A stretch of 64,000 nt of DNA from an uncultured Planctomycetota bacterium (GCA_963752285.1 CAVVXN010000002.1:455116-519115); one strand, 5' to 3'. Shown: positions 14,067 to 59,507, counted from the first letter of the stretch. Numbers and translations are program-made. The notes: generated by a model from the sequence alone, not told the origin.

Positions 14067-14067
14067 C

Positions 14068-18755: not shown

Positions 18756-18832
18756 CGCGGACCCGCGCCGCGACCCGGGCGTCGCCGCATCCCGGCCCAC
18801 GCCGGATCCGCCCGCGCGGCGCACCTACGAGA

Positions 18833-18863
18833 GCGCCCCGCGCGGCGGGGCCGCGCGGGGCGC
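18833..18863. terminator. Perfect 14-bp GC hairpin between convergent genes (bidirectional terminator candidate)
   Basis: GCGCCCCGCGCGGC-ggg-GCCGCGCGGGGCGC lies between the stops at 18755 (+) and 18883 (-). Confidence 0.45.
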
Positions 18864-18882
18864 GAGGGGGAGACTCCGAACG

Positions 18883-21411: not shown

Positions 21412-21695
21412 GCTGATCTCCTGGTACCGATGTGCAGGTCGGGGCGCGGCGGGAACGGGAATTCCGCCCCCGACCCGCGTGATCCGCCGACGGAGCCTGG
21501 CGGCGACGACGTGGCGGCAGAGCGCGTCGAGACTGCGGGCGCGGTCGTCCTGGTGTCTCGGGTGCGGAGCAAGCGCCTTGTCGTTCATCCGACGGGCCTC
21601 GTCTCAGCGAATCGTCCCTCTTGGGGCGGAGTGTATTCGTGCCGTGGCGTCTTCCCAATCTTTGCGACGGTGTTCCGTGCGGAATGCGTTGTTGA

Positions 21696-21744
21696 TTGCA
21701 TAGTATGCAAACGAATCGTGCAGATTGAATGCAACGTTGTTGCA
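21696..21744. promoter_or_regulatory. Two TTGCA/TGCAA palindromes in a locally AT-richer island (operator candidate)
   Basis: TTGCATA-g-TATGCAA is at 21696-21710 and TGCAAC-gtt-GTTGCA is at 21730-21744. Both lie in the 455-bp spacer between the two large cytochrome genes. Confidence 0.3.
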
Positions 21745-21866
21745 GCGAGGACCCCGGCGCCATGCCGCGCGCGCGCCCCGGAAATGCGAGCGGCCCGCGC
21801 GAGCGGAGGCTCGCGCGGGCCGCGAATGGGGGAAGGGCGCCCGGGGGCGCCCTCCGCTGGTCGTCG

Positions 21867-28049: not shown

Positions 28050-28330
28050 GCCGCGGCGGCCTTGGTGCCGCCGAGAGACCGGTGCGCGGACGGGTCCCGG
28101 TCGCTTCGGCGTGGCGGATCCCGTCGGCCGTTCGGTGTCGTCCACGGCGCTCCCCTGCCCAGGCCCCTCGGAGGGACGAGCGAAGATACGCCCGCGCCGC
28201 TTCGAGGGCACGCGTGGCCTCTTTGGACCGCGCGGCACGCGCCCACGGACCCACCTCGGGGACCCCGCGCCCCCCGGGCGCCCGCGCCTCGGGGTTGACG
28301 GGGTCCCGGCCCTCGCCTTCACTTGGCGCC

Positions 28331-34497: not shown

Positions 34498-34516
34498 GGC
34501 GGCGGCGCGGGGCGGG

Positions 34517-36865
34517 TCACGCGTCCGCAACGGCCGCGAAGACGAAGACCTCGACCGGCGTGCCCTCCTTCGCGCCGACCACGATCAGGTCCACGTCCAT
34601 CGCGGACTCGACCGAGAACGAGAACGCGGGGAAGTGGTCTCCGCTGCTGTCCTCGCCGACGACGCTCCCGTCGCCGGCGTTCACGGCCTTCATGTCGATT
34701 GGCTCGAACCCAGGCGCCACCGCGACCGCGAGATAGGGCCCGTCGTGGGGGAGGGACGCCCGCTCGCGGGCGACGCCCTTCTCGTCGAGCTGGAAGCTCC
34801 CCGAAGCGACGGCCTTCGCCGACCACGACCCGCCCTTCGCGCGGGCGATGTTCTGGAGCCAGTGGTCGAGGAGCCGCCCTCGGATCCGGGCGGGCGTCAT
34901 CGCGCTCAGCGCGGCGCGGTAGAGCTGCCCTCGGATGCGCGTCGCGCCGCCTTCGACCTCGAGCTTGACCTGGAGGTCGCCGGCCGTGTCGGTCTCGAGG
35001 CTCGCCACGCCGAGCCACGGCGCGAGCCGCGTCGGCGCCACGGGCACGGGGTTCCCCGAGGCGGGCGCGAATTGGATGTCCATCCCGATCTCGCGCCGGC
35101 GGTCCGCGTCCACGATGGCGAGGTACCGGCCCGGGCTGTCGAGCCGGAGCACGAGTGGGGCGTCCGGCGCCTGCTTGCCCGGAGGCACGGGCGCCTCGAG
35201 CTCGCTCTGCTTCGCCCACGCGACCGTCTGCGTCATGTTCGAGCCGCTCTCGATCTCGTGGACCGCCTTCGCGAGGACCTGTTCCACGTCGAGGTCGCGT
35301 TGGAGGAGGTGGCCCGAGGCGTAGAGCGTCTGGATGCGCGACTCCCACGCGGTCTCGCGCCCCGCCTGCTTCGCGTCGGCCGTGTCCTTCAGCAGCTCGT
35401 TCACGAGATCCGCACGCTGGCCGTAGTTCACGCCGACCCCGGTCGAGATGCGGGGGCCGCCGCCGATCTGCAACACGTTGCCTGCGCTGAGGACCGCGAT
35501 CACCCGGCCCTGCGCGTCGATCATCGGGCTCCCGCTCGCGCCGCCGGCGGCCGGGCAGCTGTGCTGGATCAGGAGGTTGTCCGCGCGCGCCTCCGCCGAC
35601 TCGCCGTGCGCGCCGAAGTAGTCGGTCATGGCCGTGACCGAGCCGATCTGCGTCTGCGCGGTCGGCTGGTGGAGCGGCGTCCCCCCGAACGCCACGCCCT
35701 CCATCGGGTATCCGATGTAGCCCACGGCGTCGCCCGCGTCGAGCCGGCAAAGCGCCACGTCGGACTCGATCGGGAGGGGCGGCGCGAGGCCCTCGAAGGG
35801 GGCCTTCAGGTGGAGCAGCCCGACGTCGCACGCGCCGCCGGGGAACCGGATCGTGTTCGCGTTCTTGGCGTCCGTTCCCTCCACGGGCACGTAGCCCTCC
35901 CACACGTGCTCGAACGCCGCGTAGCCGGGGTGGACGATCACGGAGTCCACCACGTACGTCCGCGGCGTCTCCGCGTTCGAGCGCACGAGCATGCGCACGC
36001 CGGGTGCGAGCTGGCCGAAGACCTCGGCGACGTGGGCGTTCGTCGCCAGGGTCCCGTCCGAGACCACCCAGGCGGTCCCCAGGCCGTTCTCGAATCCCTC
36101 GGCGTTCTCCAGCAGGACGAGGTAGACGGACGGCCGCGCCTTTCGCAGCGCCTCCTCGATGCGGTCCTTGTTCGCGGCGAGCTCCTCCTCGACCGCGTGG
36201 AACTTCTGCGTCATCGACCCGACCGTCTCGGTCAGGTTCCCGAGGTCGCCGCCGACCGCGCTCAGGTCGTTTTGGACGTGCGTGATCTCGTCGTGCATGG
36301 AGCCGAGCGAGCTCCGGACGTCGGCGATCGCGTGGCCTTCCTCGGCGAGACGACGCGTGACCGCGTCCTCGGCCGTGTCGATCCGCTCCGACTGCCGGAG
36401 GAGCGCGCGGAGGCCCACGGCCGCCGCCCCGAGGACGACCACGAGCACCCCGAAGAGGAGCCAGCGGGTGCGGCCGGTCGCGGCGACGGCCTGGTGGAGG
36501 ACCGTGGCCTGTCCCGCGCGGTGGCCCTGCCGGATCGTGGGCGACAGGTCCTCGCGCTCCACGCGTCGGACCACCACGCGCGGCCCGTCCGGCCCGAGCC
36601 GGAGCTCGCACTGCTCCGGTAGCTCCTGGTCGTCGTACGCCGGCTTCCCGTCCACGAGGACCAGGTTGTCGCCGTTGAGCACGACGCGGTAGCGGCCGAG
36701 CACGCGCCGCAACGCCACGTGCTCGCGACCCACCACCGTCTGGTCGCCGGGAAACACGACCTGACAGCGATCCGGGTCGCGGCCGAAGACGATCTCCTCC
36801 TGGTCGTCGCCGAACGACCGGCTCGCCTCCGCGCTGTCGTCCCGAACGCGCACCACGAGCCCCAT
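34517..36865 (-). CDS. FHA domain - TM - coiled coil - trypsin-like serine protease - unknown C-terminal domain (782 aa)
   Basis: Track ORF. The FHA domain reads EIVFGRDPDRCQVVFPGDQTVVGREHVALRRVLGRYRVVLNGDNLVLVDG. The TM helix is WLLFGVLVVVLGAAAVGL. Protease triad contexts are ATNAHVA, DVGLLHL and GGASGSPMID. Confidence 0.85.
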   Translation of the reverse strand: MGLVVRVRDDSAEASRSFGDDQEEIVFGRDPDRCQVVFPGDQTVVGREHVALRRVLGRYRVVLNGDNLVLVDGKPAYDDQELPEQCELRLGPDGPRVVVRRVEREDLSPTIRQGHRAGQATVLHQAVAATGRTRWLLFGVLVVVLGAAAVGLRALLRQSERIDTAEDAVTRRLAEEGHAIADVRSSLGSMHDEITHVQNDLSAVGGDLGNLTETVGSMTQKFHAVEEELAANKDRIEEALRKARPSVYLVLLENAEGFENGLGTAWVVSDGTLATNAHVAEVFGQLAPGVRMLVRSNAETPRTYVVDSVIVHPGYAAFEHVWEGYVPVEGTDAKNANTIRFPGGACDVGLLHLKAPFEGLAPPLPIESDVALCRLDAGDAVGYIGYPMEGVAFGGTPLHQPTAQTQIGSVTAMTDYFGAHGESAEARADNLLIQHSCPAAGGASGSPMIDAQGRVIAVLSAGNVLQIGGGPRISTGVGVNYGQRADLVNELLKDTADAKQAGRETAWESRIQTLYASGHLLQRDLDVEQVLAKAVHEIESGSNMTQTVAWAKQSELEAPVPPGKQAPDAPLVLRLDSPGRYLAIVDADRRREIGMDIQFAPASGNPVPVAPTRLAPWLGVASLETDTAGDLQVKLEVEGGATRIRGQLYRAALSAMTPARIRGRLLDHWLQNIARAKGGSWSAKAVASGSFQLDEKGVARERASLPHDGPYLAVAVAPGFEPIDMKAVNAGDGSVVGEDSSGDHFPAFSFSVESAMDVDLIVVGAKEGTPVEVFVFAAVADA

Positions 36866-36951
36866 GTCGCACCCTCCCGGCCTCGGCCGGCCACGCTACC
36901 AGGGTCGGACCGGGCCGGGCGCCGGCCGGCGCCTGCGCGCGTCCGCCCGGG

Positions 36952-38190
36952 TCACCCCGCGTCCAGCCACGCGTCGATGCGCTCGGTCCGCCCCGCGGCG
37001 GCGAGGATCCGGTCGGCCTGCGCCCGGGTGCCCGAGATGTCGTCCTTCCGCGCGGCGTACGTCCGAAACGCGCGCTGGTAGTGCCGGGCCGCCGCCGCCG
37101 GCTCGCCCGCGAGGAGCAGCGCCTCGGCGCGCATCACCTGCGTGTAGTAGGGGAGGCGCGACGTGTCCACGCCGCCGCGCTCCAGGGTCGCCTCCCGCGC
37201 ATCGAGCAGCGCGCGGACCTCGCCGGCCAGCGCCTCCGCGGCGTCCGTCCGGCCGAGCAGGAGCGCCGTCGTCGCGGCGTTGATCCCGAGGTACGCGTTC
37301 TCCCGGCCCGAGCCGCGCCAGGCGTCCCGGTAGATCCGGTGCGCGCGCTCGAGCGCCGGCGTCCCATCCTCGGCCAGGCCCACGCGCTTCAACGCCCCGG
37401 CGAGGATCCCCGCCGTCTCGTCGTCCGTCGGCTGGCGCCGGCGGAGGGGCTCGAGCCGTCGGATCGCCTCGGCGGGGTCTCCGCGACGGCTCGCGAGGAA
37501 CGCGGCGAGCTGGACGAGGCGCACGTCGGAGGGCGCGTCGGCGAGGCCGCGCGCGAGGAGGGCGTCCGCGTCCTCGAGAGCGCCGCGGCGGATCTCGAGC
37601 TCCGCGCCGAGCGCGAGGAGCGCGGCGCCGCCGGGGTGCGCCGCGCGGCCGGGCGCCGAGAGCGCCGCCCGTGCCGGGGCCGGGAGCGGACGGCCCTCGC
37701 GCGCGAGGTCGCGCAGGGCGTCGAGGAGCGACCCCGTGCCGCCGGGCGTCCGCGGGGGCCACGGTCCGCCGTCCATGGTGAGCGAGGCGAGCGCGGGCCC
37801 CCCGGCGCGCCGCCGGAAGAACCAGTCGAGCCACGCGCCGAGGAGGTGCCCGACGATTTCCGCGTCCTCGGGCTCCGGCGCGTACCCCACGTGCCGGACG
37901 GCGTTCCCGAGGCGCCGCACGGTGTGGCCCACGGTCACGTCGAGCTCGTCGAGGAGGCCCATGTCCTCGAGGTTCACCAACGTGCCGTAGCAGCTGGTCC
38001 CCGGCTCGATCCCGAGGGCGGCGACGGCGGCGCTCGCGAGCGCCTCGACGACGCGGGCCGCGTAGAGCACCGCCGCCTCGGGTGCGTCCACGCCGCGCAC
38101 GGCCTCCAGCCGCTCGAGGTCCCGCGCGAGCCGAAACGGTCCCGACGCGAACGCGAGGACCTCGGGGCGGAGCCGTCCGACCTCGCTCAC
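36952..38190 (-). CDS. DUF4145-like N-terminal domain plus TPR-like helical repeat protein
   Basis: GTG at 38190 overlaps the kinase stop (GTGA) within ORF 36952..38424. AAVLYAARVVEALAS...GHTVRRLGNAVRHVGY...DAEIVGHLLGAWLDWFF matches the DUF4145 pattern. The C-terminal half is TPR-like. Confidence 0.65.
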   Translation of the reverse strand: MSEVGRLRPEVLAFASGPFRLARDLERLEAVRGVDAPEAAVLYAARVVEALASAAVAALGIEPGTSCYGTLVNLEDMGLLDELDVTVGHTVRRLGNAVRHVGYAPEPEDAEIVGHLLGAWLDWFFRRRAGGPALASLTMDGGPWPPRTPGGTGSLLDALRDLAREGRPLPAPARAALSAPGRAAHPGGAALLALGAELEIRRGALEDADALLARGLADAPSDVRLVQLAAFLASRRGDPAEAIRRLEPLRRRQPTDDETAGILAGALKRVGLAEDGTPALERAHRIYRDAWRGSGRENAYLGINAATTALLLGRTDAAEALAGEVRALLDAREATLERGGVDTSRLPYYTQVMRAEALLLAGEPAAAARHYQRAFRTYAARKDDISGTRAQADRILAAAGRTERIDAWLDAG

Positions 38191-40220
38191 GACGCGTCCG
38201 CCCCCAGGTCGGCGAGGATCGCGTCGAGGCGCCTCGCGACCTCGTGCGCCGACGGCCGGCGGCGCGGCGACTTCGCGAGCATCTCGTCGAGCAGACGGAC
38301 GAGGCCGTCGGGCAGCCCGCGCCGGAGCTCCCGAACGGGCATGGGCGTCGTCTCCCGGATCGCGCGGGCCGCGGCCTCGACGTCGTGCGACGGCAGGTGG
38401 AGGGGGAGGAGGCCGGTCAGCCACTCGTAGAGGACCACGCCGAGCGCGTACACGTCCGCGCGCGCGCCGACGCCCTTGCCCGCCGCCTGCTCCGGCGCCA
38501 TCGTGGCCAGCGTTCCGACGACCGCCTGGCGGTCGAACGCGTTCGGGTCACGGGGCAGGTACGCGACGCCCATGTCGATCAAGACGGGACGGCCCGCCGG
38601 CGTGACGATCACGTTGGCCGGCTTCACGTCGCGATGCACGACCCCGGCGTCGTGGAGGGCCTGGAGCGCGTCCGCGACGTCGCGCACCGTCTCGATCACG
38701 AGCCCGAGGGGCGCGCTCGCGTCGGTGGGCATCGCCGACCGGAGCGAGCGTCCCGGAACGTAGTCCTCGACGATGTACGTCCGGCCGCCCCGGTCCGTGC
38801 CGATGGCGCGCACGCGCGCGACGCCCGGATGCCGCACCCGCGAGGCCGCCTCGAGCTCCACGCGGATCGAGCGGAGTCGCGCGCGCCGCTCCTCCGGGTC
38901 GTAGAGGTCCTCGAGGCGGAGGACCTTCAGGGCCACCTCCTCGCCGCGCCGGACGTCGAGGGCGAGGTGCACCTCGCCGAAGCTCCCCTCGCCGAGCTTC
39001 GAGAGCAGCGTGTACGCCTGGTCCGGCCCGGGAACGGGGCGAGCCAGGTCGAGGCGCCCCTCCTCGACCTCGGCGCCCGGAGGGAGGTCGAGACCCTCCA
39101 TCGCCTCGCGAATCGGGGCCAGGTGCCGGTGGAGCCCCGCCTCGCGCGCCAACGCGAGCGCGCGGGCGAGGCTCGCGTGCGCGTCCCCTCTCCGCCCGCG
39201 CCGCACGAGCTCGGTGGCGAGGTCCAGGAGGACGGGCACCTCGGCGTCGGGGGTCGAGAGCCGCTCGAGCGCGCGCGCGGACCGGATCAGGGCGTCGGCG
39301 GCCGAGGCGTCGCCCTTCGCGGCGAGAACGAGCCCCTCCGCGTGCGTCAGGAGCGCGCGTGCGAAAGGGTCGTCGCGGCCTTCGAGGAGGCGTCGCCCCT
39401 CGGCCACGGCCGCCTCGGCCCGGGCGCGACGGTCGGGATCGTCGCGCGCGCCCTCCCCGGAGAGGAGCGCGAGCGCCGTGTCCTTCGCGGCGAACGCGAG
39501 GACGTCGTCGAACCCGCCCGCCGTGGCCACCACCCGGCACGCCTCGAGCGACTCGATCGCCTGGTCGGCGGCGCCGAGGGCCATGTGCGCGCGCGCGATG
39601 TCGTTTTGCATCCGGGCCTCGCCACGCCGGTCGCCGAGCGCGCGCGACATCTCGAGGTCGAGCCGGAAGCAGTGGAGCGCTTCGCGGGCCCGACCCGCGC
39701 TGAGGAGCAGCCGGCCCAGGTTCCCGAGCGTGATGGCCACGCCGGCGCGGTCGTCCGAGATCGACTTCTGCGCGATCGCCAGCGCGTAGTAGCCCGACGC
39801 CGGCTCGAGCTGGCCGTCGAATGCGTACGCCATGCCGAGCGAGTCGTAGACCTCCGCCTCGCGCCGCGACTCGCCGTGGGCCTCGTACACCTCGAGCGCG
39901 CGGAGGAGGCTCTGTACGGCCGGGCCGGTCCGCGCCGCGCGCGCGAGGACGACGCCCCTCACGTGCTCGGCGCGCGCCTCGATCTCGCTTCCGCGCGGCA
40001 CGCGGCCGAGGACCGCCTCGAGCGCGTCGAGGACGGCCCCGTGCGGCCGGCCGGCGCGCGCGTCGAGGAGGAGGAGCTCGATCTCGACCGCGTCGGGACG
40101 CGCGCCCCGGACCGCCTCGAAGGCCTCCCGCGCCGCGCGGTCCTCGCCCCGTTCGGCGAGCGCCACCGCGCGCGCGAAGCCCGCGTGCGCGGACGGGGCT
40201 GCGGGCGCGGTGTCCTCCAC
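38187..40220 (-). CDS. TPR-repeat / Hanks-type Ser/Thr protein kinase
   Basis: Track ORF with a GTG start. The N-terminal ~390 aa are TPR-like. Kinase motifs are GEGSFGEV, VALK, HRDVKPANV, DMG (a DFG variant) and TLATMAPE. Confidence 0.85.
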   Translation of the reverse strand: MEDTAPAAPSAHAGFARAVALAERGEDRAAREAFEAVRGARPDAVEIELLLLDARAGRPHGAVLDALEAVLGRVPRGSEIEARAEHVRGVVLARAARTGPAVQSLLRALEVYEAHGESRREAEVYDSLGMAYAFDGQLEPASGYYALAIAQKSISDDRAGVAITLGNLGRLLLSAGRAREALHCFRLDLEMSRALGDRRGEARMQNDIARAHMALGAADQAIESLEACRVVATAGGFDDVLAFAAKDTALALLSGEGARDDPDRRARAEAAVAEGRRLLEGRDDPFARALLTHAEGLVLAAKGDASAADALIRSARALERLSTPDAEVPVLLDLATELVRRGRRGDAHASLARALALAREAGLHRHLAPIREAMEGLDLPPGAEVEEGRLDLARPVPGPDQAYTLLSKLGEGSFGEVHLALDVRRGEEVALKVLRLEDLYDPEERRARLRSIRVELEAASRVRHPGVARVRAIGTDRGGRTYIVEDYVPGRSLRSAMPTDASAPLGLVIETVRDVADALQALHDAGVVHRDVKPANVIVTPAGRPVLIDMGVAYLPRDPNAFDRQAVVGTLATMAPEQAAGKGVGARADVYALGVVLYEWLTGLLPLHLPSHDVEAAARAIRETTPMPVRELRRGLPDGLVRLLDEMLAKSPRRRPSAHEVARRLDAILADLGADAS

Positions 40221-49848: not shown

Positions 49849-52800
49849 TTGAACCGGAATCGGGCGCGGCGGACATTGCCTCGTGGAGGCGCGTTGCGAC
49901 CGCACCCGGCCGTCGATCCCGAGATCCTGCTGGCCCACGCCGCGGCGCTGAGGCGTCTCGCCCGCGCGCTCGTCCACGACGGGATCGAGGCGGAGGACGT
50001 CGCGCAGGAGACGCTCGTCCGGGCGCTCGAGCGGGGACCGCGCGCGGGCTGGGACCTCTGGGCGTGGCTCTCGGGCGTCGCGCGAAACGTCGCGCGGACC
50101 GGAGCACGGGCGCGCGCGCGCCGGCTCCGGCGCGAGGCGGGGGCCGCGCGTCTCGAGGAGACCCCTTCGACGCTCGACGTGGTCGCGAGTCTCGCCGAGC
50201 GCCGCGCGCTCGTCACGGCCGTACGCGCCCTCCCCGAGCCGTACCGGACCGTGGTGACGCTCCGCTGGCTCGAGGGCATGTCGCCGCGCGCGGTCGCGCA
50301 CCGGCTCGGCGTTCCCGTCGAGACGGTCCGGACGCGGGCGAGGCGCGCGCTCCCCATGCTGCGGGCGCTCTTGACGCGGCGCCACGACGGCAACGAGCGG
50401 CGGGCGATCCTCGCGCTCCTGCCCCTCGCGGGCGGCGGGCCGACCCCGCTCACGGCGCTGGGAGGCGCGGCCATGGCGACGAAGACCTACGTGACCGCCG
50501 CGGCGGCGGTCTGTCTCCTCCTCGTGGGGCTCGCCGCGTGGCTCGCCCTCGGCCGCGGTGGCGTCGGCGACGCGGCGCCTCGGCCCGGAAGGCCGGCGCT
50601 CGGTCCGAGCGCGCCGCCGCGCCTCGTCGGTACGGAGACGGAGCCCGACACGCGACCGTCGCCGGCCGTGACGTGGCACGTGGACGCCGGCGTGAAGGGA
50701 CGCGTGGTGGGGCCGGGGGACGCCCCCGTCCCCGGCGCGAGCGTCGTGTTCGTGGCGCCGGACCTCTACGTCTCGGCCGACCCGGAGCCCGCCGCACGAA
50801 CCGCTGCCGACGGGACGTTTCGCTTCGAGGTGCCCGCGGCGCTCCGGTCGGGCGTGCGGCTGTTCGTGCACGCGCCGGGGTACCGCACGGCGAGCCGCCT
50901 CGCGAGGGCCGACCCAAGCGAGGAGACCGTGCTCCGCCTCGTGCCCGTACCGAGCGTGCGGCTCCGCGTCCTCGACTCGGACACGGACGCGCCGATCCGA
51001 GGCGCGGTCGTCGAGACGTGGACGCTCGAGCTCGGAGGCGAGAGCGCGGAACGCGCGACGACGGATGCGGAGGGCGTCGCCATCCTCTCCGATCCGGGGC
51101 CGGCCTCGGGCGACGTCCTGTTCGGGCCGTTCGTGCACGTGGCCCATCCCGGGTACGAGCCCGCGCGCGTCGAGCTCTGGCAGGGCGACCGTCCCCGCGC
51201 AGCGGGCGGGAAGCCCACGGAGGTGTATCTGCGTCCCGGGAGCCCGAGCCGGATCCTCGTGCTGGAGGCGGACGGCTCGACGCCGGCGGCCGGCGTGCGC
51301 GTCCGCGGCTGGTCCGGCGGCGGCCTCCCGGTCGGGGCGGGCGCGGACGTGGTGATCCCCCAGGCCAGCGTCACGTCGATCGGCGAGGGGGTCACCTCGG
51401 CCGACGGCAGCGTGCGGTTGGGCGCACCCGCGCGAGACGAGCAGCTCTTCCTCCTCGCGGACCGGCCGGGTCATCTCGCCGTGCGCTGCCTCGAGAACGG
51501 CGGCGAGGATGCCGCGAGCCCGTGGCGGCTCGTGCTCTCTCCCGCCGGGTCCGTCTCCGGCCGCGTCGTGGACGCCTCCGATCGCCCCATCCCCGGCGCG
51601 CACGTCGAGACGGACTGGCGCGCCTGGTTCCCTACCCGAGCCGATCGCGCCGCGGGCGACGGTTTCCCGAGGGCGTACCCCCCTCCCGCGCTCTACGAAC
51701 GCGTGGCCGTCACGTCCGGGCCCGATGGCCGCTTCACCGTGCCGTGGGTGGTGTGTCCTGGCGGTCGGACCCGGGTCTGGGCGTACGCCGCGGGCCGGGA
51801 GACCGCGAGCGAGGACGTCCTCGCTCCGGCCGAGGGCGCGCCCCGCGACGAGGTCGTGCTTCGCCTTCCCCTGCGGGAGGACGCGTGGACGGTGCGCGTC
51901 CACGACGCGTCGGGCCACCCGATCGAACGGGCGCTCGTGGGACAACCTCGAACGTATCCGATGACGCGGACCGACCGGCTGGGCGTGGCCCGCCTCGTAC
52001 CCGTCGCCGCGCCGGGAGAGCCGGCGTTCGTCTTCGCCTCGGCGCCCGGCTTCGCGTCGGTCCGGGTCGAGGTCGATCCGGCGTCACCGGACCGCGCCCT
52101 CGACCTCGCGCTGGGACCCGCGCGGTCCCTCGAGGTCCGGACGATCGACGAGACGAACGGTCCCGTGCCCGCGTCGGTCGAGGTGTACGCCGGCGACCTC
52201 CCTCCCTCGGTCGAGCTCCCACTCTCGACGGCGCTCGACGTGCGGCGCCTCGCCGAGGGCATCACCGACACGGGCGGGGTGGTGCGGTTCGACGACCTGC
52301 CCCCGGGGGACCTCGTCGTGTGGGCGGGGCGACCGGGCGCGGGCCGCGGGGGCGTGCGGACCTCGGTCGGGCACGAGCCGGGCGTCGAGCTCCGCCTTCC
52401 CGGTCGCCACGACGATCCCGCGGCCGGCTCCGTCGTCGAGGGCCACGTGGTGGACGTCGAGGGGCGCGCCGTCCTCCGGTACCGGGCCACGATCGAGTCG
52501 GACTCGGTGGCGCAGGGCGCCGCGCTCGAGGGCCGCCGGTTCCGGTTCGAGGGTCTCCCGCCGGGAGCCTACGACCTCCTGGTCACCCCGCGGGGGGACT
52601 GGAAGCGGGTCATCGTGCCCGTCGTCGTGCGCCGGGGCGAGGACGTCCACGACCTCACGGTGCGCGTGGGGGAGGGCGCGAGCGTTCTCGGGGTCGTCGC
52701 GGCGCCCGCGAACACGAGCGTCGCGCGCCTGCGCGTCCTGGCGATGGCCGTCGGTACGCGTCGCGCATGGGGAACCAGCGCCGACGTGGGCAAGGACGGT

Positions 52801-53250
52801 CGTTTCGTGCTCGAGGGCCTGAACGCGGGACGCTACGCCCTCCGTCTCAGCGCCGAGGGCGGCGCTCACGACTCTCCGCTCCAGCTGGTGGACGCGGTCG
52901 TGGACCTCGCGCCGGGCGAACGCCTCGAGCGGACGTTTCGTGCCGTCGGGGCGGTGCGCCTGTGGCTGCGCGGCGACGATCCCTCGCTCGCGGACCGCCC
53001 CCCGCCCGTCCTCACGGTCGCCACGCAGTCGGTGGACAACGTCTCTTCCTGGGTCGTGATCGAGCTCCAGGACGAGGCCGGCGCCCGCCAGAGCGCGGGA
53101 GGCCTCTACCGGGAACGGACGCGCACTCCGTTCCTGCTCGTGCCGGGTCGATACCATCTGCGGGTCAGCCATCACCGCCTGGGTCGGTACGAAGCCGACC
53201 TCGACGTACGGGGCGACGACGACGTGGACGTGCTCGTTCACCTCGAGTAG
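49849..53250 (+). CDS. ECF-type sigma-70 factor fused in one ORF to a TM helix and an extracytoplasmic region of at least 8 carboxypeptidase-regulatory-like repeats
   Basis: Track ORF. The start is uncertain: TTG at 49849, or TTG at 49894 behind a GGAGG. Sigma region 2 is EDVAQETLVRALER. Region 4 is LPEPYRTVVTLRWLEGMSPRAVAHRLGVPVETVRTRARRAL. No stop occurs before the TM helix (AAAAVCLLLVGLAAWLAL). Repeats follow, such as VKGRVVGPGDAPVPGASVVF...AADGTFRFE. Confidence 0.75.
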   Translation: MNRNRARRTLPRGGALRPHPAVDPEILLAHAAALRRLARALVHDGIEAEDVAQETLVRALERGPRAGWDLWAWLSGVARNVARTGARARARRLRREAGAARLEETPSTLDVVASLAERRALVTAVRALPEPYRTVVTLRWLEGMSPRAVAHRLGVPVETVRTRARRALPMLRALLTRRHDGNERRAILALLPLAGGGPTPLTALGGAAMATKTYVTAAAAVCLLLVGLAAWLALGRGGVGDAAPRPGRPALGPSAPPRLVGTETEPDTRPSPAVTWHVDAGVKGRVVGPGDAPVPGASVVFVAPDLYVSADPEPAARTAADGTFRFEVPAALRSGVRLFVHAPGYRTASRLARADPSEETVLRLVPVPSVRLRVLDSDTDAPIRGAVVETWTLELGGESAERATTDAEGVAILSDPGPASGDVLFGPFVHVAHPGYEPARVELWQGDRPRAAGGKPTEVYLRPGSPSRILVLEADGSTPAAGVRVRGWSGGGLPVGAGADVVIPQASVTSIGEGVTSADGSVRLGAPARDEQLFLLADRPGHLAVRCLENGGEDAASPWRLVLSPAGSVSGRVVDASDRPIPGAHVETDWRAWFPTRADRAAGDGFPRAYPPPALYERVAVTSGPDGRFTVPWVVCPGGRTRVWAYAAGRETASEDVLAPAEGAPRDEVVLRLPLREDAWTVRVHDASGHPIERALVGQPRTYPMTRTDRLGVARLVPVAAPGEPAFVFASAPGFASVRVEVDPASPDRALDLALGPARSLEVRTIDETNGPVPASVEVYAGDLPPSVELPLSTALDVRRLAEGITDTGGVVRFDDLPPGDLVVWAGRPGAGRGGVRTSVGHEPGVELRLPGRHDDPAAGSVVEGHVVDVEGRAVLRYRATIESDSVAQGAALEGRRFRFEGLPPGAYDLLVTPRGDWKRVIVPVVVRRGEDVHDLTVRVGEGASVLGVVAAPANTSVARLRVLAMAVGTRRAWGTSADVGKDGRFVLEGLNAGRYALRLSAEGGAHDSPLQLVDAVVDLAPGERLERTFRAVGAVRLWLRGDDPSLADRPPPVLTVATQSVDNVSSWVVIELQDEAGARQSAGGLYRERTRTPFLLVPGRYHLRVSHHRLGRYEADLDVRGDDDVDVLVHLE

Positions 53251-53359
53251 CCCACCCTGCGGCGGACGAGCGGCACCCCGGATCCGCCGAAACGAAGAGC
53301 GTCCGCTCCCGGAGACCGTCGCATCGCGTCCGAGAGCGACGTCCGCACGCCCGGAGGGA

Positions 53360-53433
53360 TGGAGGCGCCGTCCGGAATCGAACCGGAGTGCGCGGATTTG
53401 CAATCCGCTGCCTAACCACTCGGCCACGGCGCC
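53360..53433 (-). tRNA. tRNA-Cys (anticodon GCA), CCA encoded
   Basis: The reverse complement reads GGCGCCGUGGCCGAGUGGUUAGGCAGCGGAUUGCAAAUCCGCGCACUCCGGUUCGAUUCCGGACGGCGCCUCCA. The acceptor stem is 7 bp. The anticodon arm is GCGGA/UUGCAAA/UCCGC. The T arm is UCCGG/UUCGAUU/CCGGA, and the discriminator is U73. Confidence 0.9.
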
Positions 53434-54080
53434 CGGGTCCGGGCTGGGGAGTTGAAACCGGGTTCGCCGGATTGGCAAGCCCGGTCCGAGGTCGGAGGTC
53501 CGCCCGCGGCTACGGGCTGCGGGCCGGCGGTGGTGCGTCCCGGGCGCCGGCCGCCGGGGGCGGGAGTCCGGGCGGAGCCCGTCGCGGCGTTGCGTCGCGG
53601 CGCTGCGGAGCCGAGGGTCCCCCGGAGCCGACGGCGTCCCGGAGTCGCGGGCGGCGCGGCGCCGGGGCCGGGACAACCGGCGGGCGCGGTCCCCGCGGGC
53701 GTGGGGCCGGCCTGGGTCACGGCGGCCCGGCGTACCGAGCGTCGGTCCCTGCGCGTCGGGCCCCCGCCTTGGCGAGGGCGCGCCGGCGCGCCTGTTTATT
53801 CGTTCGTGTGCGAATCGATTCACTTCGTGTGCGATACCCATCGCAGGATCGCACGCGCGGTACACACCTCGGCAACCCGGTAACCATCCCCCGCTTGGCG
53901 GCGGTTGCGTCGAAGTTCCAAGACGCCCGGCGCGCGATCGCATTTCGTGCGGTCCCCGACGGGGCGAGAAGAGAATTACGCGGTAGCTACCTCGAGCGCG
54001 CCGCGCGGTGCGACGTTTGCCTACAAGAGTCGGGCGGGTACCCGAAACGCAACCGCGGGCTCGCTCCAAGGAGAGGCGTC

Positions 54081-57000
54081 ATGTCACGCTCCCGTGTCGT
54101 GGGGATCTCCCTCACCCTTCTTGCCTCGGTCGTCCTCGCGTCTTGCGGTGGCAGCGGCCAGGGCCTCCGGATGCCGAGCGACTCGGTCCGGTTCCTGAGC
54201 ACGTCGCTTCCGGCGATGACGTCGGGCGTGCCCTACGACTACCAGATCCCGCTCACCGGCGGTTGCGGCGGCCCCTACGTGATGAAGACGATCTCGGGCG
54301 GGCTGCCCGCTGGGCTCGTGTTCGACCCCCAGAACCACGCGATCCGGGGTACGCCGCTCGTAGACGGGGTGTTCTCCTTCGAGATCCAGATCCAGGACAC
54401 CGGTTGCAACCCATTCTCGGCCGCGGCGGCCAAGTTCAGCGCGAACGTCACGGTCGGAGCCGTCACCGTCGTGGACGTCCTGCAGGACGGGAACCCGAGC
54501 CTCTCTGCGCCCGGAACGGCACCCGAGTTCCCCGACCTGCCCGCGCTCCCGAACACGGTCTACAACGAGTTCACCTCGCTGCACTTCCTCTGCGCCGGCG
54601 GGCAGGGGCCCTACACGATGAAGATCGCCGACGACCCTGCGAACCCCGACGATGGCGCACTTCCCCTGGGCGTGAGCGTCGCGCCGAAGTCCACCGATCT
54701 CGTGGGGTCTCCGGCGGAGGTGGGCCCGAACGAAGGACCGTTCTGCCTGACGTTCGACGTCCAGGACTCCCTGGGCAACACCTCTCGCTTCACCTGCTGC
54801 TGGCGGGTGGACACGCCGCCGATCCTGGTGGCCGTCACGAGCCTCGCGAACGGCGCCTGCGGCCAGGTCTACAGCGAGCAGCTCTCGGTCAGCGGCGGCG
54901 TCCCGCCCTTCTCCCACGAGCTCGTGGAGAAGGGGCTTCCCCTCGACTACACGATCGACCGCGGACCGAACCCGTCCAATCCCTCGGCCGACGTGATCTT
55001 CGAGCCCGGGGCGGAGCCTACGGTCAACCCGCCGGAGGCGCTGAACCGCATCGACTCGTGGGTCTACCCCGCGCCCGCCGCGCTGGGCCCCAACTATGCG
55101 GCCTCGAATCCGGGCGCTCCGCCCGAGGGCGTCTACATCGTCGAGGACACGGGCTCCCTCCGCGGCATCCCGCGTCGCCGCGGCGCCTTCCTGATCCACT
55201 ACCACGTCAAGAGCGCGCTGGTCCCCCTGAGCTTCGGACAGCACGCCTGGCGCTCGTTCAACGTCACCTTCTCCCCGGCCCCGGCTCCCGCGCAGAACCC
55301 CGCCTACACGGTGGAGGGCTCGTTCTCCTCCATCCCGCCCTACGCCCGCGTCCCCGAGATGCAGCAGGGGCAGGTCTACAACCCCGACGCCGGACCGCTC
55401 GGGCTCCAGCTCCTCGCCACGGGTGGCGTGCCCCAGGACGGCTACTCGGACCATCCGCACAAGAGCCAGATCGACAGCGACCCGGTCGTCGGCGAGACCG
55501 CCGGCGCCTACCTCTGGTCGATCGACTGGGACCCCGACGGCCTCGGAAGCAGCCAACCGCTGCACGTGGAGTTCCTCCCGTCGGGCGTCCTCCGGCCGGT
55601 CACCGGCGAGGAGGCGAACCTGGTCCCGCAGGCTCCCGCGGCCATCGCCGTCACCGCGCAGGACTTCGCCCTTCCACAGTCTCTCGCCGGCACGCAGACG
55701 CAGAAGGTGCGCCTCGGCATCGGGCCGGACCGGATCATCGTGACCCAGTCCACGACCTCCTACACGAGCGACTACTACACCATGGCGTTGAACGACCCCG
55801 TCATGACGGTGCGCATGATGCTGCCGTACACGTCGGGCGCTCAGCTCCGGAACCTGAACGACTCCGATCTCGTAGGCAACGGCACCGACCGCATCCCGCT
55901 GCCGACGGAGATCGGTTCGAGCACCTCGATCTCCACGCTGCTCACGAACATCGACATCGTGCGTGTGTCGGTCAACCCGACGGGTTGGTGGGACGACACC
56001 AACGCCCTGAACCCGCGAGGCGCGCGCCCGTGGCAGCACGGTGACCGCAACGAGTACTACCCGTACTACGGCATCGGCTACAACGGCAACACGTACGACA
56101 TCTACGGCTACAACTCGGACCAGGTCCAGCCGTCCGCCACGGCGGTTCGGCTGCCGGCCTGCACGTCTTCGGCGGTCACGGCCGACCTCCAGACCGGCGT
56201 GTACACGGACGGCGGCAAGCTCTACGTCTTCGACGCCGCCTCCTACTTCGGGATCTTCATCATCCGCAAGGACGGTCGCATCTACGTCCCGGCCGCGTTC
56301 TCGAAGTCCGGGACGTGGAGCTCCTTCGGCGACAACTGGATGGAGTCCTACTCGACCAGCACCTCGCAGCTGAGCCTCGTGAAGATCCCGCAGATGACCG
56401 TGAGCCCGGACGGCCGCTTCGCGGCGTTCAAGCTGCGGCGTTCGCTCAACCAGTGGGAGAACGCGAGCTCGTCGGGCATCCTGCTCATCTCCCTGACGGG
56501 GGAGCGGGTCGGTGGCTGGGGTGACGACGTCCACCACGTCATCTCGACGGGCTCGGACGGGAGCTGGTCCCAGGGCGAGATCGTCTTCGCCTCGAGCCTC
56601 ACCCTGACCGGCCAGTACCTGTACTACCTGGTCGGCAGCGGAAGCACCGACTACATGCACTTCCGCGACCACTACATCTATCGCGCCGACATCACGTCGG
56701 GCGCCTCGGCGGGCGCGCTGCTCCACCCGGGCTTCTCCTCGGCCTGGCCGAACAGCCCGGGCAGTCCGATGCAGACGCCCTTCCAGTGCTTCTCGCGATC
56801 GTTCGGGTCGTCGAGCGGCCCGGACATGGTGATGATCTCGACGTACGGCTACAACGGGTTCGAGGCGTCGCTCGCCCCGCACCCGTTCCGGGTGAGCTCC
56901 GACGGCCGCGCGTGCGCGATCCTCGCGAGCCCGACGCCCGCCGGGGTCGGCGGCTCGGACGTCCTCCTCCACAACGTGTGGGTGGACTACGACGGCAACC

Positions 57001-58508
57001 TCTCCCAGGTGAGCACGAAGGCGCGTCACTCGCACGGCGGCGGCCGCGGCACGGCGCTCACGACCGGTCCCGTGTACTACCCGGTGACCGGGCTGTGGGG
57101 CCGCTACAACGGACCGACCACCGCCTTCGAGATCTCGGACGACGGCCTGAAGGTCGCCGTGGTGGTGAGCCGCGCGGACTACGTCTACGCGGCCTACTCG
57201 TACTACGACTACAACTACGACTGGCAGTACCGCGAGGACGTCGTCGCGTTCACGAGCTCGGGGGCGACCCCGTGGCAGGGCTCGACCGAGCTCCAAGTCA
57301 CGGGCAACGAGTCCGGCGGCACGCCGGTGTTCTCGAACTCCCTCCTCTGGCGCTTCGGAGCGCTGACGTTCACGCGCGCCGGGGACGGCCTCGTGTTCTG
57401 GGGCGGCTATTCGTGCTACAGCCCCAGCTGGTTCGACGCGGACTACTCCTACATGGCCTCGGGCTCCAAGAGCTTCATCGGGAGCCTGTACTCGTACTCG
57501 TTCAGCGACAACGGCGTCCGCAGCATCCTTTCGAGCTCCGACGGCGGGTGCAACCTGACCGTGGGCAGCACGCAGACCTCGATCTCGTTCTCGACGAGCC
57601 AGGGCCAGACCGACGGCGGCGTCATCCGTCCGTGGGGCGGCTTCCTCTCGAAGAACGGGAACTTCTTCTACATCGTGAACCACGAGGCCCTGAGCACGTC
57701 CGACTACACGAACGCCCGCCTGGTCGGAGTGAACGTCCGGAGTCTCGACTCGTCGAGCTCCATCAACAGCCACCTCGACGGACGCGCCTTCGCCGTCGGC
57801 GGCATGGGCAGCTCGGTCGGCTACCACGGCTTCTACCCGTTCCTCGACTACACCAGCTTCTTCGGCATGGGCAGCGAGTACTACTACTACCACTATCACC
57901 AGTACTACAACCACTACATGGGCGCGAAGCAGGTGGCTTCCACGGACAACGGCTGGGTGTTCTTCTTCAGCGACTACCAGCCCTACTCCAGCAACGCCAG
58001 CGGCTGGCTCTACGACTCGGGCGGTTCGATCCGGAACACGGGGTACTCGTACGGGTACGAGGGCCACGTGTTCGTCTTCGACCCGAACGTGGGCGGGAGC
58101 GTGCAGAGGGTCACGGGCAGCGAGTTCGGCGCCGACACGGGCTACAACTATCGCTTCCCCGGTTTCCTCGAGGTGTCGGACGACGGCAGCGGCTGCGCGG
58201 TCGTCTACGGCACGAATTACCCCGCGCTGCAGTACGAGCAGCTGATCGCGTACAGCCGGATCCGGCTGAACCCGACGACCGGCGCGCTCCTGGCAGGCAA
58301 GCAGTACCGCTCGCTCGAGCCCTCCATCACGCGCGTGAGCTCGTGCATCTCGTTCGACTCCGTCACCGAGAAGCTGCTGTACGCGGCCGGCAGCGGCAAC
58401 GAGAACAGCAAGACGATCAAGGCGGGCACGCTGGCCACCGGTTCGACCACGACCGCCTACTCCGGCTTCGGCACCAAGAGCTTCAACATCCTGCACGCCG
58501 GCCGCTGA
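54081..58508 (+). CDS. 1475-aa lipoprotein: N-terminal putative-Ig (He_PIG-like) repeats plus a large Tyr/Ser/Gly-rich region with PD40-like blades
   Basis: In-frame ATG at 54081 (RBS AAGGAGAGG) of the 2891-aa track ORF, with lipobox VLASC. LPAGLVFDPQNHAIRGTP is an Ig-type repeat. (V/I)S(P/S/D)DG motifs recur (VSPDGRFAAF, VSSDGRACAI, ISDDGLKVAV, VSDDGSGCAV). A low-complexity stretch reads SEYYYYHYHQYYNHY. Confidence 0.85.
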   Translation: MSRSRVVGISLTLLASVVLASCGGSGQGLRMPSDSVRFLSTSLPAMTSGVPYDYQIPLTGGCGGPYVMKTISGGLPAGLVFDPQNHAIRGTPLVDGVFSFEIQIQDTGCNPFSAAAAKFSANVTVGAVTVVDVLQDGNPSLSAPGTAPEFPDLPALPNTVYNEFTSLHFLCAGGQGPYTMKIADDPANPDDGALPLGVSVAPKSTDLVGSPAEVGPNEGPFCLTFDVQDSLGNTSRFTCCWRVDTPPILVAVTSLANGACGQVYSEQLSVSGGVPPFSHELVEKGLPLDYTIDRGPNPSNPSADVIFEPGAEPTVNPPEALNRIDSWVYPAPAALGPNYAASNPGAPPEGVYIVEDTGSLRGIPRRRGAFLIHYHVKSALVPLSFGQHAWRSFNVTFSPAPAPAQNPAYTVEGSFSSIPPYARVPEMQQGQVYNPDAGPLGLQLLATGGVPQDGYSDHPHKSQIDSDPVVGETAGAYLWSIDWDPDGLGSSQPLHVEFLPSGVLRPVTGEEANLVPQAPAAIAVTAQDFALPQSLAGTQTQKVRLGIGPDRIIVTQSTTSYTSDYYTMALNDPVMTVRMMLPYTSGAQLRNLNDSDLVGNGTDRIPLPTEIGSSTSISTLLTNIDIVRVSVNPTGWWDDTNALNPRGARPWQHGDRNEYYPYYGIGYNGNTYDIYGYNSDQVQPSATAVRLPACTSSAVTADLQTGVYTDGGKLYVFDAASYFGIFIIRKDGRIYVPAAFSKSGTWSSFGDNWMESYSTSTSQLSLVKIPQMTVSPDGRFAAFKLRRSLNQWENASSSGILLISLTGERVGGWGDDVHHVISTGSDGSWSQGEIVFASSLTLTGQYLYYLVGSGSTDYMHFRDHYIYRADITSGASAGALLHPGFSSAWPNSPGSPMQTPFQCFSRSFGSSSGPDMVMISTYGYNGFEASLAPHPFRVSSDGRACAILASPTPAGVGGSDVLLHNVWVDYDGNLSQVSTKARHSHGGGRGTALTTGPVYYPVTGLWGRYNGPTTAFEISDDGLKVAVVVSRADYVYAAYSYYDYNYDWQYREDVVAFTSSGATPWQGSTELQVTGNESGGTPVFSNSLLWRFGALTFTRAGDGLVFWGGYSCYSPSWFDADYSYMASGSKSFIGSLYSYSFSDNGVRSILSSSDGGCNLTVGSTQTSISFSTSQGQTDGGVIRPWGGFLSKNGNFFYIVNHEALSTSDYTNARLVGVNVRSLDSSSSINSHLDGRAFAVGGMGSSVGYHGFYPFLDYTSFFGMGSEYYYYHYHQYYNHYMGAKQVASTDNGWVFFFSDYQPYSSNASGWLYDSGGSIRNTGYSYGYEGHVFVFDPNVGGSVQRVTGSEFGADTGYNYRFPGFLEVSDDGSGCAVVYGTNYPALQYEQLIAYSRIRLNPTTGALLAGKQYRSLEPSITRVSSCISFDSVTEKLLYAAGSGNENSKTIKAGTLATGSTTTAYSGFGTKSFNILHAGR

Positions 58509-58537
58509 CGGCGGCCGAGACGTTTCGATCGCACGCC

Positions 58538-58569
58538 CCGGCCCCCGCGGCACCGCCCGCGGGGGCCGG
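58538..58569 (+). terminator. Perfect 13-bp GC hairpin 30 nt after the lipoprotein stop (terminator candidate)
   Basis: CCGGCCCCCGCGG-caccgc-CCGCGGGGGCCGG is followed by gcttcgtct. Confidence 0.5.
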
Positions 58570-58685
58570 GCTTCGTCTCGGGGGGACCGGAGGCGCGCGG
58601 GTCGTCAGCCGGAGTCCTCGCCGCCGCCCGATCGACCGGAGCCGGAGCGCGCGGAGCGTCACGGCGTTCGTCGTCGCGCTCGGGG

Positions 58686-59507
58686 CTACGGGACGTTCAC
58701 GCGGGCGTTCTCGACGTTCGCGCCGAGGCGGCCGCCGGGGACGAGGAGCGGGACGACACGGCCCTCGCGTACCACCTCCACGGCGACCTGGTCGGTGGGG
58801 GCGGTGCGGTCCCGGGCCGCCAGGAGCTCGGAGAGGTCGTGGACCCGGACCGCGTCGTAGCGGACGATCACGTCGCCCACGCGAAGCCCCGCCTCCCTCG
58901 CCCGGCTGGTGTCGGCGAGGCCCGTGACGCGGATCCCGTCGGCGCGCGCGAGGTCCACGGTGCGCTCCACGTGGCGGACTTCGGTCGTGATCTCGACGTC
59001 GATGGTCGCCGCCACGTGGTGGGGGGCGCTGAGGGGTTCGATCGCCGCGACGGTGTCCCGCTGGTCCGCGCAAAACCCCACCGCGAATCGCACGTCGGGA
59101 ATGGGCTCCTCCGTCCGCGCGTCGAGCACCCGGACCTCGAAGCTCGCGGTTCCCGGCACGCGCACGGATCCCACGTCGGTCGTCCGGCCGGGCTCGACCC
59201 GGTATCCCAGGTCGCTCTCGTACGGGTTCGCGCCCCCGCCTTCGAAGAGCGCGGGCCGCCCCTCGATCCACCCGCCGTGCTCGTTCGGCCGAGCGTTCAA
59301 AGCCTCGGCGTCGGACGCGGCGCTCGGAGCCCGCGCGTTCGGCTCGACCCCGCGGAGCGCCGCCGCGCCCGGCGCCGCTTCGGCGCTCGCGGGCGAGGGC
59401 CGCGCGAGGTCCCTCGCGTCGCGCGGCTCGTTCCCCGATCTCCGCACGAGGAACCAGCCGAGCGCGACGAGCACGTCGAGCAGGATCGCGACGACGATCG
59501 GCCTCAT
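58686..59507 (-). CDS. Membrane-anchored protein with a C-terminal PDZ domain
   Basis: In-frame ATG at 59507 of the 1396-aa track ORF. The N-terminal TM helix is IVVAILLDVLVALGWFLV. The PDZ-like segment is GIRVTGLADTSRAREAGLRVGDVIVRYDAVRVHDLSELL. Confidence 0.7.
   Translation of the reverse strand: MRPIVVAILLDVLVALGWFLVRRSGNEPRDARDLARPSPASAEAAPGAAALRGVEPNARAPSAASDAEALNARPNEHGGWIEGRPALFEGGGANPYESDLGYRVEPGRTTDVGSVRVPGTASFEVRVLDARTEEPIPDVRFAVGFCADQRDTVAAIEPLSAPHHVAATIDVEITTEVRHVERTVDLARADGIRVTGLADTSRAREAGLRVGDVIVRYDAVRVHDLSELLAARDRTAPTDQVAVEVVREGRVVPLLVPGGRLGANVENARVNVP

Follow-up and report, generated by a model that had tools for sequence, protein, structure and literature searches.

In SGBP-B of Bacteroides ovatus, a lipidated cysteine is followed by an eight-residue linker and by tandem immunoglobulin (Ig)-like domains, which project a distal xyloglucan-binding domain carrying a Trp/Tyr platform (PMC4850273). 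A protein of comparable layout is encoded in a stretch of 64,000 nucleotides from an uncultured Planctomycetota bacterium (GCA_963752285.1, CAVVXN010000002.1:455116-519115), which is referred to here as the window. The gene occupies positions 54081-58508 and had been picked out in an earlier note as coding for a 1475-residue Tyr/Ser/Gly/Asn-rich lipoprotein. By analogy, the SGBP-B type offers the best comparison and is probably the closest documented functional analogue of this protein. As in SGBP-B, SusE and SusF, a lipidated cysteine (here a predicted one) and a short flexible linker precede Ig-like domains which project a distal module, and binding in those proteins is by aromatic side chains. 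However, they have no sequence relationship with the window protein, and its distal module is a propeller-like body of about 930 residues rather than a small Ig- or carbohydrate-binding-module-like domain. The gene also does not lie in a SusC/SusD-type locus, and its host is a member of the Planctomycetota and not of the Bacteroidota.

Several other systems resemble parts of the protein. It shares with He_PIG and cadherin-like surface proteins a first stalk domain that passes the PF05345 cut-off and a stalk that aligns structurally with cadherin and protocadherin ectodomains, but the He_PIG family covers only 70 of the 1475 residues, and Xanthomonas autotransporters and giant proteins of Acidobacteriota have He_PIG alone in common with it. 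The propellers of PD40/TolB and of DPP-IV/S9 have four-stranded blades of the kind assigned here to the model, with an S-x-D-G turn in the first hairpin, and are matched by Foldseek with a probability of 1.0, whereas in the window protein the PD40 profile is unmatched, a peptidase domain is absent and about ten blades are assigned instead of six to eight. Integrin alpha is a eukaryotic protein with an N-terminal seven-bladed FG-GAP propeller and a C-terminal transmembrane helix; the two are not homologous, and its geometry of a membrane anchor, Ig-like legs and a propeller head with a ligand-binding loop face is the one proposed for the window protein. Archaeal surface-layer (S-layer) proteins of Methanosarcina are reported to combine a YVTN beta-propeller with PKD domains at the cell surface (PMC2447325). 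The likeness to these is one of description; no sequence similarity was detected, the anchoring is different (a lipobox is found here) and the domain order differs.

Domain architecture of the predicted lipoprotein

The mature protein has 1453 residues (aa) with a computed mass of about 155 kDa and a computed pI of 4.9. A family alignment of 31 sequences was used for the conservation analysis and as the input for AlphaFold2 (AF2), whose local confidence is given as pLDDT (predicted local distance difference test). The parts of the gene and protein are as follows.

54081..58508, + strand: coding sequence, 1475 aa plus stop, translated without internal stops
54081..54146, + strand: signal peptide, aa 1-22, with the lipobox LASC, in which Cys22 is predicted to be lipidated
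54147..54185, + strand: Gly-rich tether, aa 23-35, GGSGQGLR...; pLDDT below 50 for aa 21-31
54186..55724, + strand: Ig/cadherin-like stalk, aa 36-548, about four beta-sandwich domains in the AF2 model, pLDDT 87
55725..56195, + strand: pre-propeller beta region, aa 549-705, strands from AF2; conserved NPTGWWDD...LNPxAAR, with a first Tyr-rich loop at aa 657-682
56196..58505, + strand: propeller-like head, aa 706-1475, about ten four-stranded blades, most of which open with an SxDG-type A-B turn
58485..58505, + strand: conserved C-terminal strand with the motif N-[IV]-L-H-A-G-R-COOH, aa 1469-1475, whose last Arg is invariant

The N-terminus reads MSRSRVVGISLTLLASVVLAS-C22-GGSGQG and, to judge from its sequence, is a textbook lipoprotein signal with a positively charged n-region, a hydrophobic h-region and a lipobox that fits [LVI][ASTVIP][GAS]C near residue 20. 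A helix is placed at aa 3-19 in the AF2 model. Cys22 is invariant in all 31 aligned sequences and the lipobox pattern was found in 29 of the 31 N-termini. The family consensus that follows the cysteine, C-GGGGQGLR (54144-54170 in the window), is kept far beyond the overall identity of 32-54%, and the same was observed for the C-terminal motif, where the end of the profile coincides with the end of the protein in full-length relatives. Candidate roles for these two terminal motifs are a sorting signal and closure of the propeller.

The model of residues 1-620 (pLDDT 87) shows the signal helix, a disordered tether and about four beta-sandwiches. Residues 40-109 match He_PIG (PF05345) in Pfam with an E-value of 2.4e-9 and 38 bits against a gathering cut-off of 24, and He_PIG was found in 21 of the 31 family members. 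The Cys62/Cys109 pair of this first Ig domain is nearly invariant. A G-x-[LP]-P-x-G-[LV] motif occurs at aa 73, 192 and 345. With Foldseek, the stalk matches protocadherin and cadherin ectodomains, contactins, titin and the Ig array of the S-layer protein SbsB, with E-values down to 2e-14. When the single sequence was searched against the PDB, the sole match was in the Ig region (E 0.007).

The model of residues 540-1475 is all-beta, with about 44 strands and almost no helices (pLDDT 83; pTM, the predicted template-modelling (TM) score, 0.91). Blades and loops were assigned from the DSSP string rather than from the coordinates, and the number of about ten blades and the closure of the ring, whether one ring or two, are read from the model in this way and should be taken as provisional. 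Strict [VIL][ST]x[DN]G turns are present at aa 774, 938, 1018, 1189 and 1365, where they start five of the blades, and degenerate forms (YTDGG, AGDG, STDNG) start blades elsewhere. Profile-profile comparison of the ten putative blades paired blades 5 and 9 with a probability of 94.7% over 19 columns and gave only two further pairs, both weak. Similarity in sequence between blades is thus barely detectable, and the blade count rests on secondary structure and not on sequence repeats.

Foldseek relates the head with a probability of 1.0 to propellers of S9 peptidases, DPP4/DPP9, WD40 Utp proteins and GH74 enzymes, at TM-scores of 0.14-0.31 (at most 0.25 when normalised to the query, TMq, and at most 0.31 when normalised to the target, TMt). 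The modelled blades appear propeller-like, but no solved structure matches the whole body, and the head may be a propeller arrangement that lacks a solved counterpart, the best TM-score to any PDB chain being about 0.3. In sequence searches, Pfam gave nothing beyond He_PIG in the window protein and only isolated weak matches among the 31 members. The PD40 profile (PF07676) has no match in the window protein at E <=1 and one among the 31 members at E 0.052. From NCBIfam came only a chance match of 12.7 bits to the Atxe2 isopeptidase propeller, and the profile of the C-terminal module had 0 matches in the PDB at E <=10. Peptidase_S9 was not matched in either Pfam or NCBIfam, and the head model has no alpha/beta-hydrolase domain. 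GH74 was not matched in sequence; its structural TMq values are 0.14-0.18, and about ten blades were assigned here and not fourteen. No SLH or other S-layer domain of Pfam was found in the window protein or in the 31 family members.

Eleven charged or polar residues are invariant in the pre-propeller region (D625, R628, N632 and D639) and in blades 1-5 (R729, D751, E928, R937, D969, R982 and E1017).

Most of what the earlier note had read from this gene was upheld. The lipobox and the Ig repeats are both real, the latter being seen in the He_PIG domain, in the motif at three sites and in the predicted sandwiches. The following 1100 or so residues, for which no motif could be named apart from recurring SxDG blades, have indeed no sequence relative in Pfam or the PDB and contain five strict turns. 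The structure prediction and Foldseek search that it had proposed were run and gave a predicted Ig-like stalk and a C-terminal part with repeated blades. Its aromatic low-complexity runs are also genuine, and they coincide with loops of low pLDDT in the AF2 model.

Tyrosine-rich loops on one face of the modelled head

Four of the Tyr-rich loops lie in blades 5 to 8, and the Tyr content differs between the four loop classes of a blade.

57171..57233, + strand: Tyr-rich B-C loop of blade 5, aa 1031-1051, RADYVYAAYSYYDYNYDWQYR; low pLDDT; 17-37 aa and 17.8% Tyr in the family
57414..57473, + strand: Tyr-rich B-C loop of blade 6, aa 1112-1131; 12-32 aa and 16.6% Tyr in the family
57795..57929, + strand: Tyr-rich D-A loop of blades 7/8, aa 1239-1283, which contains SEYYYYHYHQYYNHY; pLDDT 39-42; 35-50 aa and 19.1% Tyr in the family
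57981..58061, + strand: Tyr/Ser-rich B-C loop of blade 8, aa 1301-1327; 18.6% Tyr in the family
A-B loops: 0.1% Tyr family-wide; 0 of 52 residues in the window protein
C-D loops: 0.9% Tyr family-wide; 1 of 81 residues in the window protein
B-C loops: 13.4% Tyr family-wide; 20 of 129 residues in the window protein
D-A loops: 8.3% Tyr family-wide; 19 of 242 residues in the window protein

The Tyr-rich loops are kept throughout the family as a feature and not as a sequence: they are found at the same positions, differ in length and have a high content of Y, S, G, N and T. In the window protein, Tyr makes up 1 of 133 residues in the A-B and C-D loops together as against 39 of 371 in the B-C and D-A loops (Fisher p 6e-5). 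Because the loops of an antiparallel four-stranded blade alternate between the faces, the Tyr-rich loops share the face opposite the SxDG turns. Across the family, the A-B loops are fixed in length and the most conserved, and the B-C loops are variable in length and the least conserved.

The same class of loops was observed to change fastest. Among recent tandem paralogues, the B-C loops are 68% identical as compared with 84% for the strands and the stalk (p 2e-28), and the ratio of nonsynonymous to synonymous substitution rates (dN/dS) is 0.34 in the B-C loops versus 0.16-0.19 in strands and stalk. Change in the loops is accelerated, and positive selection was not detected, as pairwise dN/dS is below 1 in every class with a maximum of 0.42 in the B-C loops.

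A diversity-generating retroelement was considered as a source of these Tyr/Asn/His/Asp-rich loops and was rejected, as no template repeat was found in the window and no reverse transcriptase domain was present among the scanned window proteins. A sensitive blastn search of the gene against the whole window gave no second copy of any segment.

A family restricted to the Planctomycetota

A search of 5.8 billion proteins returned about 33 full-length relatives of 1470-1620 aa, with 32-54% identity and 96-100% coverage. All of them are unnamed or labelled 'hypothetical', and those with a named source all come from metagenome-assembled genomes (MAGs) of Planctomycetota. The remaining matches in this search cover the He_PIG region alone (17-30% of the query). 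In the GTDB species set, all 16 of the 16 loci belong to MAGs of Planctomycetota, Planctomycetia or Planctomycetales, so that the check on the taxonomic distribution of homologues suggested by the earlier note shows a family confined to one phylum. A profile of the C-terminal 942 positions was compared with 1.84 billion representatives and gave 160 matches at E <=0.001; all of these are full-length members or fragments, and none places the head in another architecture. Since no sequence relative exists in Pfam or the PDB and the 160 matches share the same architecture, these approximately 1,100 residues form an undescribed, phylum-restricted family. Nothing relevant on the family or on Tyr-rich planctomycetal surface proteins was found in the literature.

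The window holds a single copy of the family, and other genomes carry same-strand tandem arrays of two to six copies. HK-STAS-PLAN-1 has six copies (L011 and L009), CA_2019_TPBF_209 has at least five (L007) and MFD05684.bin.2.230 has three and two (L004 and L001). Identity within an array is 65-89% as compared with about 30-37% between lineages, which shows that the arrays arose through duplications within each lineage. Purifying selection acts on every copy, with pooled dN/dS values for the regions of 0.12-0.34.

A small protein with a transmembrane anchor, a PTPS gene and dsbD come after the family in at least four other genomes, a synteny that is absent from the window. Two of these genomes (L011/L009 and L012) also have nuoL/M/N-like genes upstream and a TetR gene in the downstream block, and the copy number at this conserved nuo/dsbD site differs, with six in one genome and one in another. 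We read the shared context, from gene order, as probable common ancestry of the site and not as an operon.

The small protein lies on the same strand after the last family copy (L009:19386-19934, L012:11720-12232, L004:14728-15270, L016:6104-6847 and L013:3129-3671) and starts 44-119 bp downstream in L009, L012, L004 and L016. It has an N-terminal transmembrane helix and a weakly conserved C-terminal part of about 75 aa, and is followed by the PTPS and DsbD genes (in L009 by TetR too); the window has no counterpart of it. It may be an accessory factor.

Reading frame and flanking signals

The window is 73% GC and the stop-free frame around the gene begins already at 49833. As open frames are cheap at such a composition, the GC content at the three codon positions (GC1, GC2 and GC3) was used to delimit the coding part. 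From the ATG at 54081, GC1/GC2/GC3 are 0.58/0.51/0.94, which is the signature of a real gene in the host genome. The gene was expected to be long and genuine and second in length only to the STAND NTPase, and this is what was found: it ranks second in the window behind the nSTAND1 NTPase (1475 versus 1605 aa), and both the GC pattern and a strong Shine-Dalgarno site mark it as real. The signals around it are as follows.

54068..54076, + strand: Shine-Dalgarno-like AAGGAGAGG, read from the sequence; ends 4 nt before the ATG, with its core AAGGAG 7 nt before
58515..58581, + strand: hairpin 3' of the stop, with an inner perfect 14-bp GC stem (58537-58570) and an outer 8-bp stem
53360-53433, opposite strand to the gene: tRNA-Cys (GCA), 647 bp upstream of the gene, which lies on the 5' side of the tRNA

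A promoter scan of 53300-58800 gave no sigma-70 consensus promoter. The hairpin including its outer stem folds with -48.8 kcal/mol as RNA, at a z-score against shuffled sequences of only -1.6 in this GC-rich sequence. It has no U-tract and for this reason is not called in a scan for consensus terminators. We consider it a probable terminator or RNA-stabilising element. The strong terminator hairpin described in the earlier note is hence correct as to the 14 perfect GC-rich pairs after the stop and is less secure as a terminator. The position given there, just downstream of a tRNA, is to be qualified by the 647 bp between the two genes and by the opposite strand of the tRNA.

The intergenic region between the minus-strand tRNA-Cys and the gene (53434-54080) is unusually long at 647 bp and is very GC-rich to about 53780. 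It contains an 18-nt GC palindrome followed by GTTTATTCGT, which is terminator-like on the + strand (53776-53803), and, at 53790-53840, a stretch of lower GC content in which TTCGTGTGCGA motifs recur. The upstream neighbour of the gene is an ECF-sigma/CarboxypepD_reg open reading frame (ORF), and the downstream neighbours are a PDZ protein, a sulfatase and a histidine kinase.

Composition and the question of foreign origin

Compared with 33 other proteins of the window, the residue frequencies of the lipoprotein are raised for Tyr (2.7-fold), Asn (2.3-fold) and Ser (2.3-fold) and lowered for Arg (0.44-fold), Glu (0.45-fold) and Ala (0.57-fold). The GC content over the gene is 0.65-0.70 as against 0.72-0.78 in the flanks. 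The compositional contrast that first drew attention to the gene is therefore real in both the protein and the DNA. It had also raised the possibility of horizontal acquisition, in which a foreign gene would have been gained recently as the cargo of an island beside the tRNA. We regard this as highly improbable, although a total GC below that of the flanks and a tRNA-Cys 647 bp upstream would be in line with it. The dip in GC lies entirely at codon position 1 and is accounted for by the many codons for Tyr, Ser, Asn, Phe and Ile, whereas GC3 (0.94) is within the 0.90-0.98 of the other confident window genes. The leave-one-out distance of its synonymous codon fractions is 0.038, which is rank 12 of 29 (range 0.025-0.082) and so mid-range for the window. 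Integrases that target the 3' end of a tRNA leave islands on that side, and the gene is on the 5' side. No segment of the tRNA region of at least 13 nt recurs in the window, and the flanking genes that were scanned contain no integrase or transposase domain. Furthermore, every named homologue is from the same phylum and the tandem duplications are lineage-specific. Horizontal transfer was rejected on GC3, codon usage, the orientation of the tRNA and the lack of att-like repeats. Two findings had been named in the earlier note as speaking against its view, a normal composition and homologues with a housekeeping role; the codon composition is indeed normal, and the homologues have no known housekeeping role.

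The window proteins that come next in being rich in S, T, N, G and Y and poor in R and A are the MtrC/MtrF-like multihaem cytochromes at 18883-21411 and 21867-24233. Each of the two is a lipoprotein whose cysteine is followed by a Gly/Ser tether (LAAC-GSGSNG and VAGC-GGGGGSS), and each has a low GC1. The amino-acid bias looks like a property of the large extracytoplasmic lipoproteins of the host. The tether and composition common to these two cytochromes and the Tyr-rich protein may be a sorting or compartment signature.

Proposed role

Our preferred reading, which we hold tentatively and with somewhat less than even confidence, is that the protein is an envelope-tethered binding protein consisting of a stalk and a head. 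It is predicted to be exported by Sec and lipidated on Cys22, and the flexible Gly-rich tether would hang it from a membrane, probably the outer one, where it would face the outside or the enlarged planctomycetal periplasm. The roughly four Ig/cadherin-like domains would act as a spacer carrying the rigid, beta-propeller-like head of about 930 residues (aa ~549-1475, with the pre-propeller region counted in). On one face of this head, the long Tyr/Ser/Gly/Asn-rich loops of variable length are proposed to form the surface that contacts the ligand, for which a polysaccharide, the surface of a particle or mineral, or another cell are candidates. The acidic pI and low charge are consistent with this role, as are the composition and Gly tether common to the two MtrC/MtrF-like lipoprotein cytochromes of the window. 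Proteins of the MtrC/MtrF class are surface-exposed in Shewanella. Among the readings considered, a binding or adhesin role, which the earlier note had favoured, appears to be the best fit to the predicted architecture.

Several observations weigh against such a role. No ligand-binding domain is recognisable by sequence, and the loops that are proposed to bind were assigned, like the blades, from a DSSP string. The pre-propeller region and blades 3-5 contain many invariant Asp, Glu and Arg residues, which could instead mark a catalytic or metal site. The C-D loops, which are 74% identical between recent paralogues, also change faster than the strands, and since dN/dS stays below 1 in the loops, their faster change may reflect relaxed constraint and not new specificities. 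No window neighbour recurs beside the homologues, so that no pathway is pointed to, and the gene was found only in DNA metagenomes of soils and wetlands and in no RNA run.

An unlikely alternative is a structural, S-layer-like coat, in which an abundant lipid-anchored glycoprotein would pack its Ig array and head laterally in a lattice and the paralogues would be alternative subunits. The protein is large, acidic, rich in Ser, Thr, Gly and Asn and poor in Lys, Arg and Glu, and it contains ten N-x-S/T sequons; its gene stands alone with a strong Shine-Dalgarno site and its own hairpin. The stalk resembles the SbsB array, among many other Ig arrays, and YVTN propellers are reported to be joined with PKD domains in archaeal surface-layer proteins (PMC2447325). 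However, neither SLH nor any other anchoring domain known from S-layers was found, a single lattice subunit would not usually be present in as many as six diverged copies at one locus, no RNA run contains the gene, and long disordered Tyr-rich loops are not a known feature of lattices. That the protein is instead an enzyme tethered by an Ig stalk, with a propeller that houses the active site and, for instance, cleaves polysaccharides or has some other hydrolytic or lytic activity, seems quite unlikely. Along the sequence, the invariant charged residues do form a cluster that spans the pre-propeller region and blades 1-5, the Foldseek matches include GH74 xyloglucanases and S9 peptidase propellers, and a sulfatase gene is located 1.3 kb downstream. 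Against this, no catalytic family was matched in Pfam, NCBIfam or the PDB by sequence, the S9 matches are to the non-catalytic propeller while the model is all-beta and has no alpha/beta-hydrolase domain, the TM-scores are only 0.18-0.30, and the window neighbours of the gene do not recur alongside the family.

The lipoproteins of diderm bacteria face the periplasm by default, and a periplasm-facing scaffold or chaperone-like lipoprotein comparable to the TolB and BamB propellers would agree with this. The SxDG turns resemble the PD40/TolB repeat and the family adjoins dsbD in several genomes. Nevertheless, we consider a scaffold very unlikely because the protein is four times the size of BamB or TolB, the family, unlike housekeeping scaffolds with their single and conserved copies, is multi-copy and fast-evolving, the window protein gives no match to the PD40 profile, and no tol, pal or bam genes are adjacent.

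If the stalk-and-head binding protein is the correct reading, a lineage would acquire a set of related binders through duplication into tandem arrays together with the fastest change in the loops. A further step, which is speculative and which we think has a low chance of being right, is that these form a lineage-specific repertoire of 'stalked propeller' receptors. In these, the Tyr-rich loop face would be a paratope-like recognition surface, maintained in composition and variable in sequence, and tandem duplication with divergence of the loops would provide Planctomycetota of soils and wetlands with different specificities for particles, minerals, polymers or other cells.

Other features of the window

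A large cluster of multihaem c-type cytochromes occupies 4460-24233. It includes ResB/CcsA-type cytochrome c assembly genes (4460-7953), a protein resembling cytochrome c554 (10354-10992) and four or five MtrC/MtrF-like, c7 or c3 proteins (12687-16711, 18883-21411 and 21867-24233), one of which is fused to a cytochrome b561 membrane domain. The protein at 21867-24233 has an internal duplication of about 340 aa with 51% identity. The cluster suggests extracellular or periplasmic electron transfer in the host planctomycete. At 24607-27186 is an 859-aa lipoprotein (LVAC) with PD40 repeats and a long TPR array; here the PD40 profile does recognise the propeller, unlike in the Tyr-rich protein.

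The region 27273-40220 looks like a conflict-system neighbourhood. It contains a DUF4062 and SIR2_2 protein (28214-29764), the nSTAND1 NTPase of 1605 aa (29680-34497), a Trypsin_2 protein (34517-36865), a TPR-S sensor-repeat protein (36952-38190) and a TPR and Ser/Thr kinase protein (38187-40220). The ORF upstream of the Tyr-rich gene (49849-53250, TTG start, 1133 aa) has ECF sigma-70 regions 2 and 4 at aa 29-172 and at least three CarboxypepD_reg domains, and is either one fused protein or two merged genes.

Significance

An envelope lipoprotein with an Ig stalk and a propeller head is known as a kind, while the head family, its Tyr-loop face, the tether and C-terminal motifs and the arrays are undescribed. 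The protein is not surprising in principle and is suited to structural and binding work in a poorly known phylum. For annotation, about 1,100 residues that are now labelled 'hypothetical' become a definable domain family. The gene also illustrates that a local dip of GC in a very GC-rich genome can be purely an effect of amino-acid content and not a sign of foreign DNA. Abundant as the Planctomycetota are in soils, wetlands and waters, almost nothing is known of their envelope proteins. Should the Tyr-rich loop face prove to bind substrates or surfaces, the family would reveal their means of capturing polymers or of attaching to particles, and the head would be an additional scaffold among natural binding proteins.

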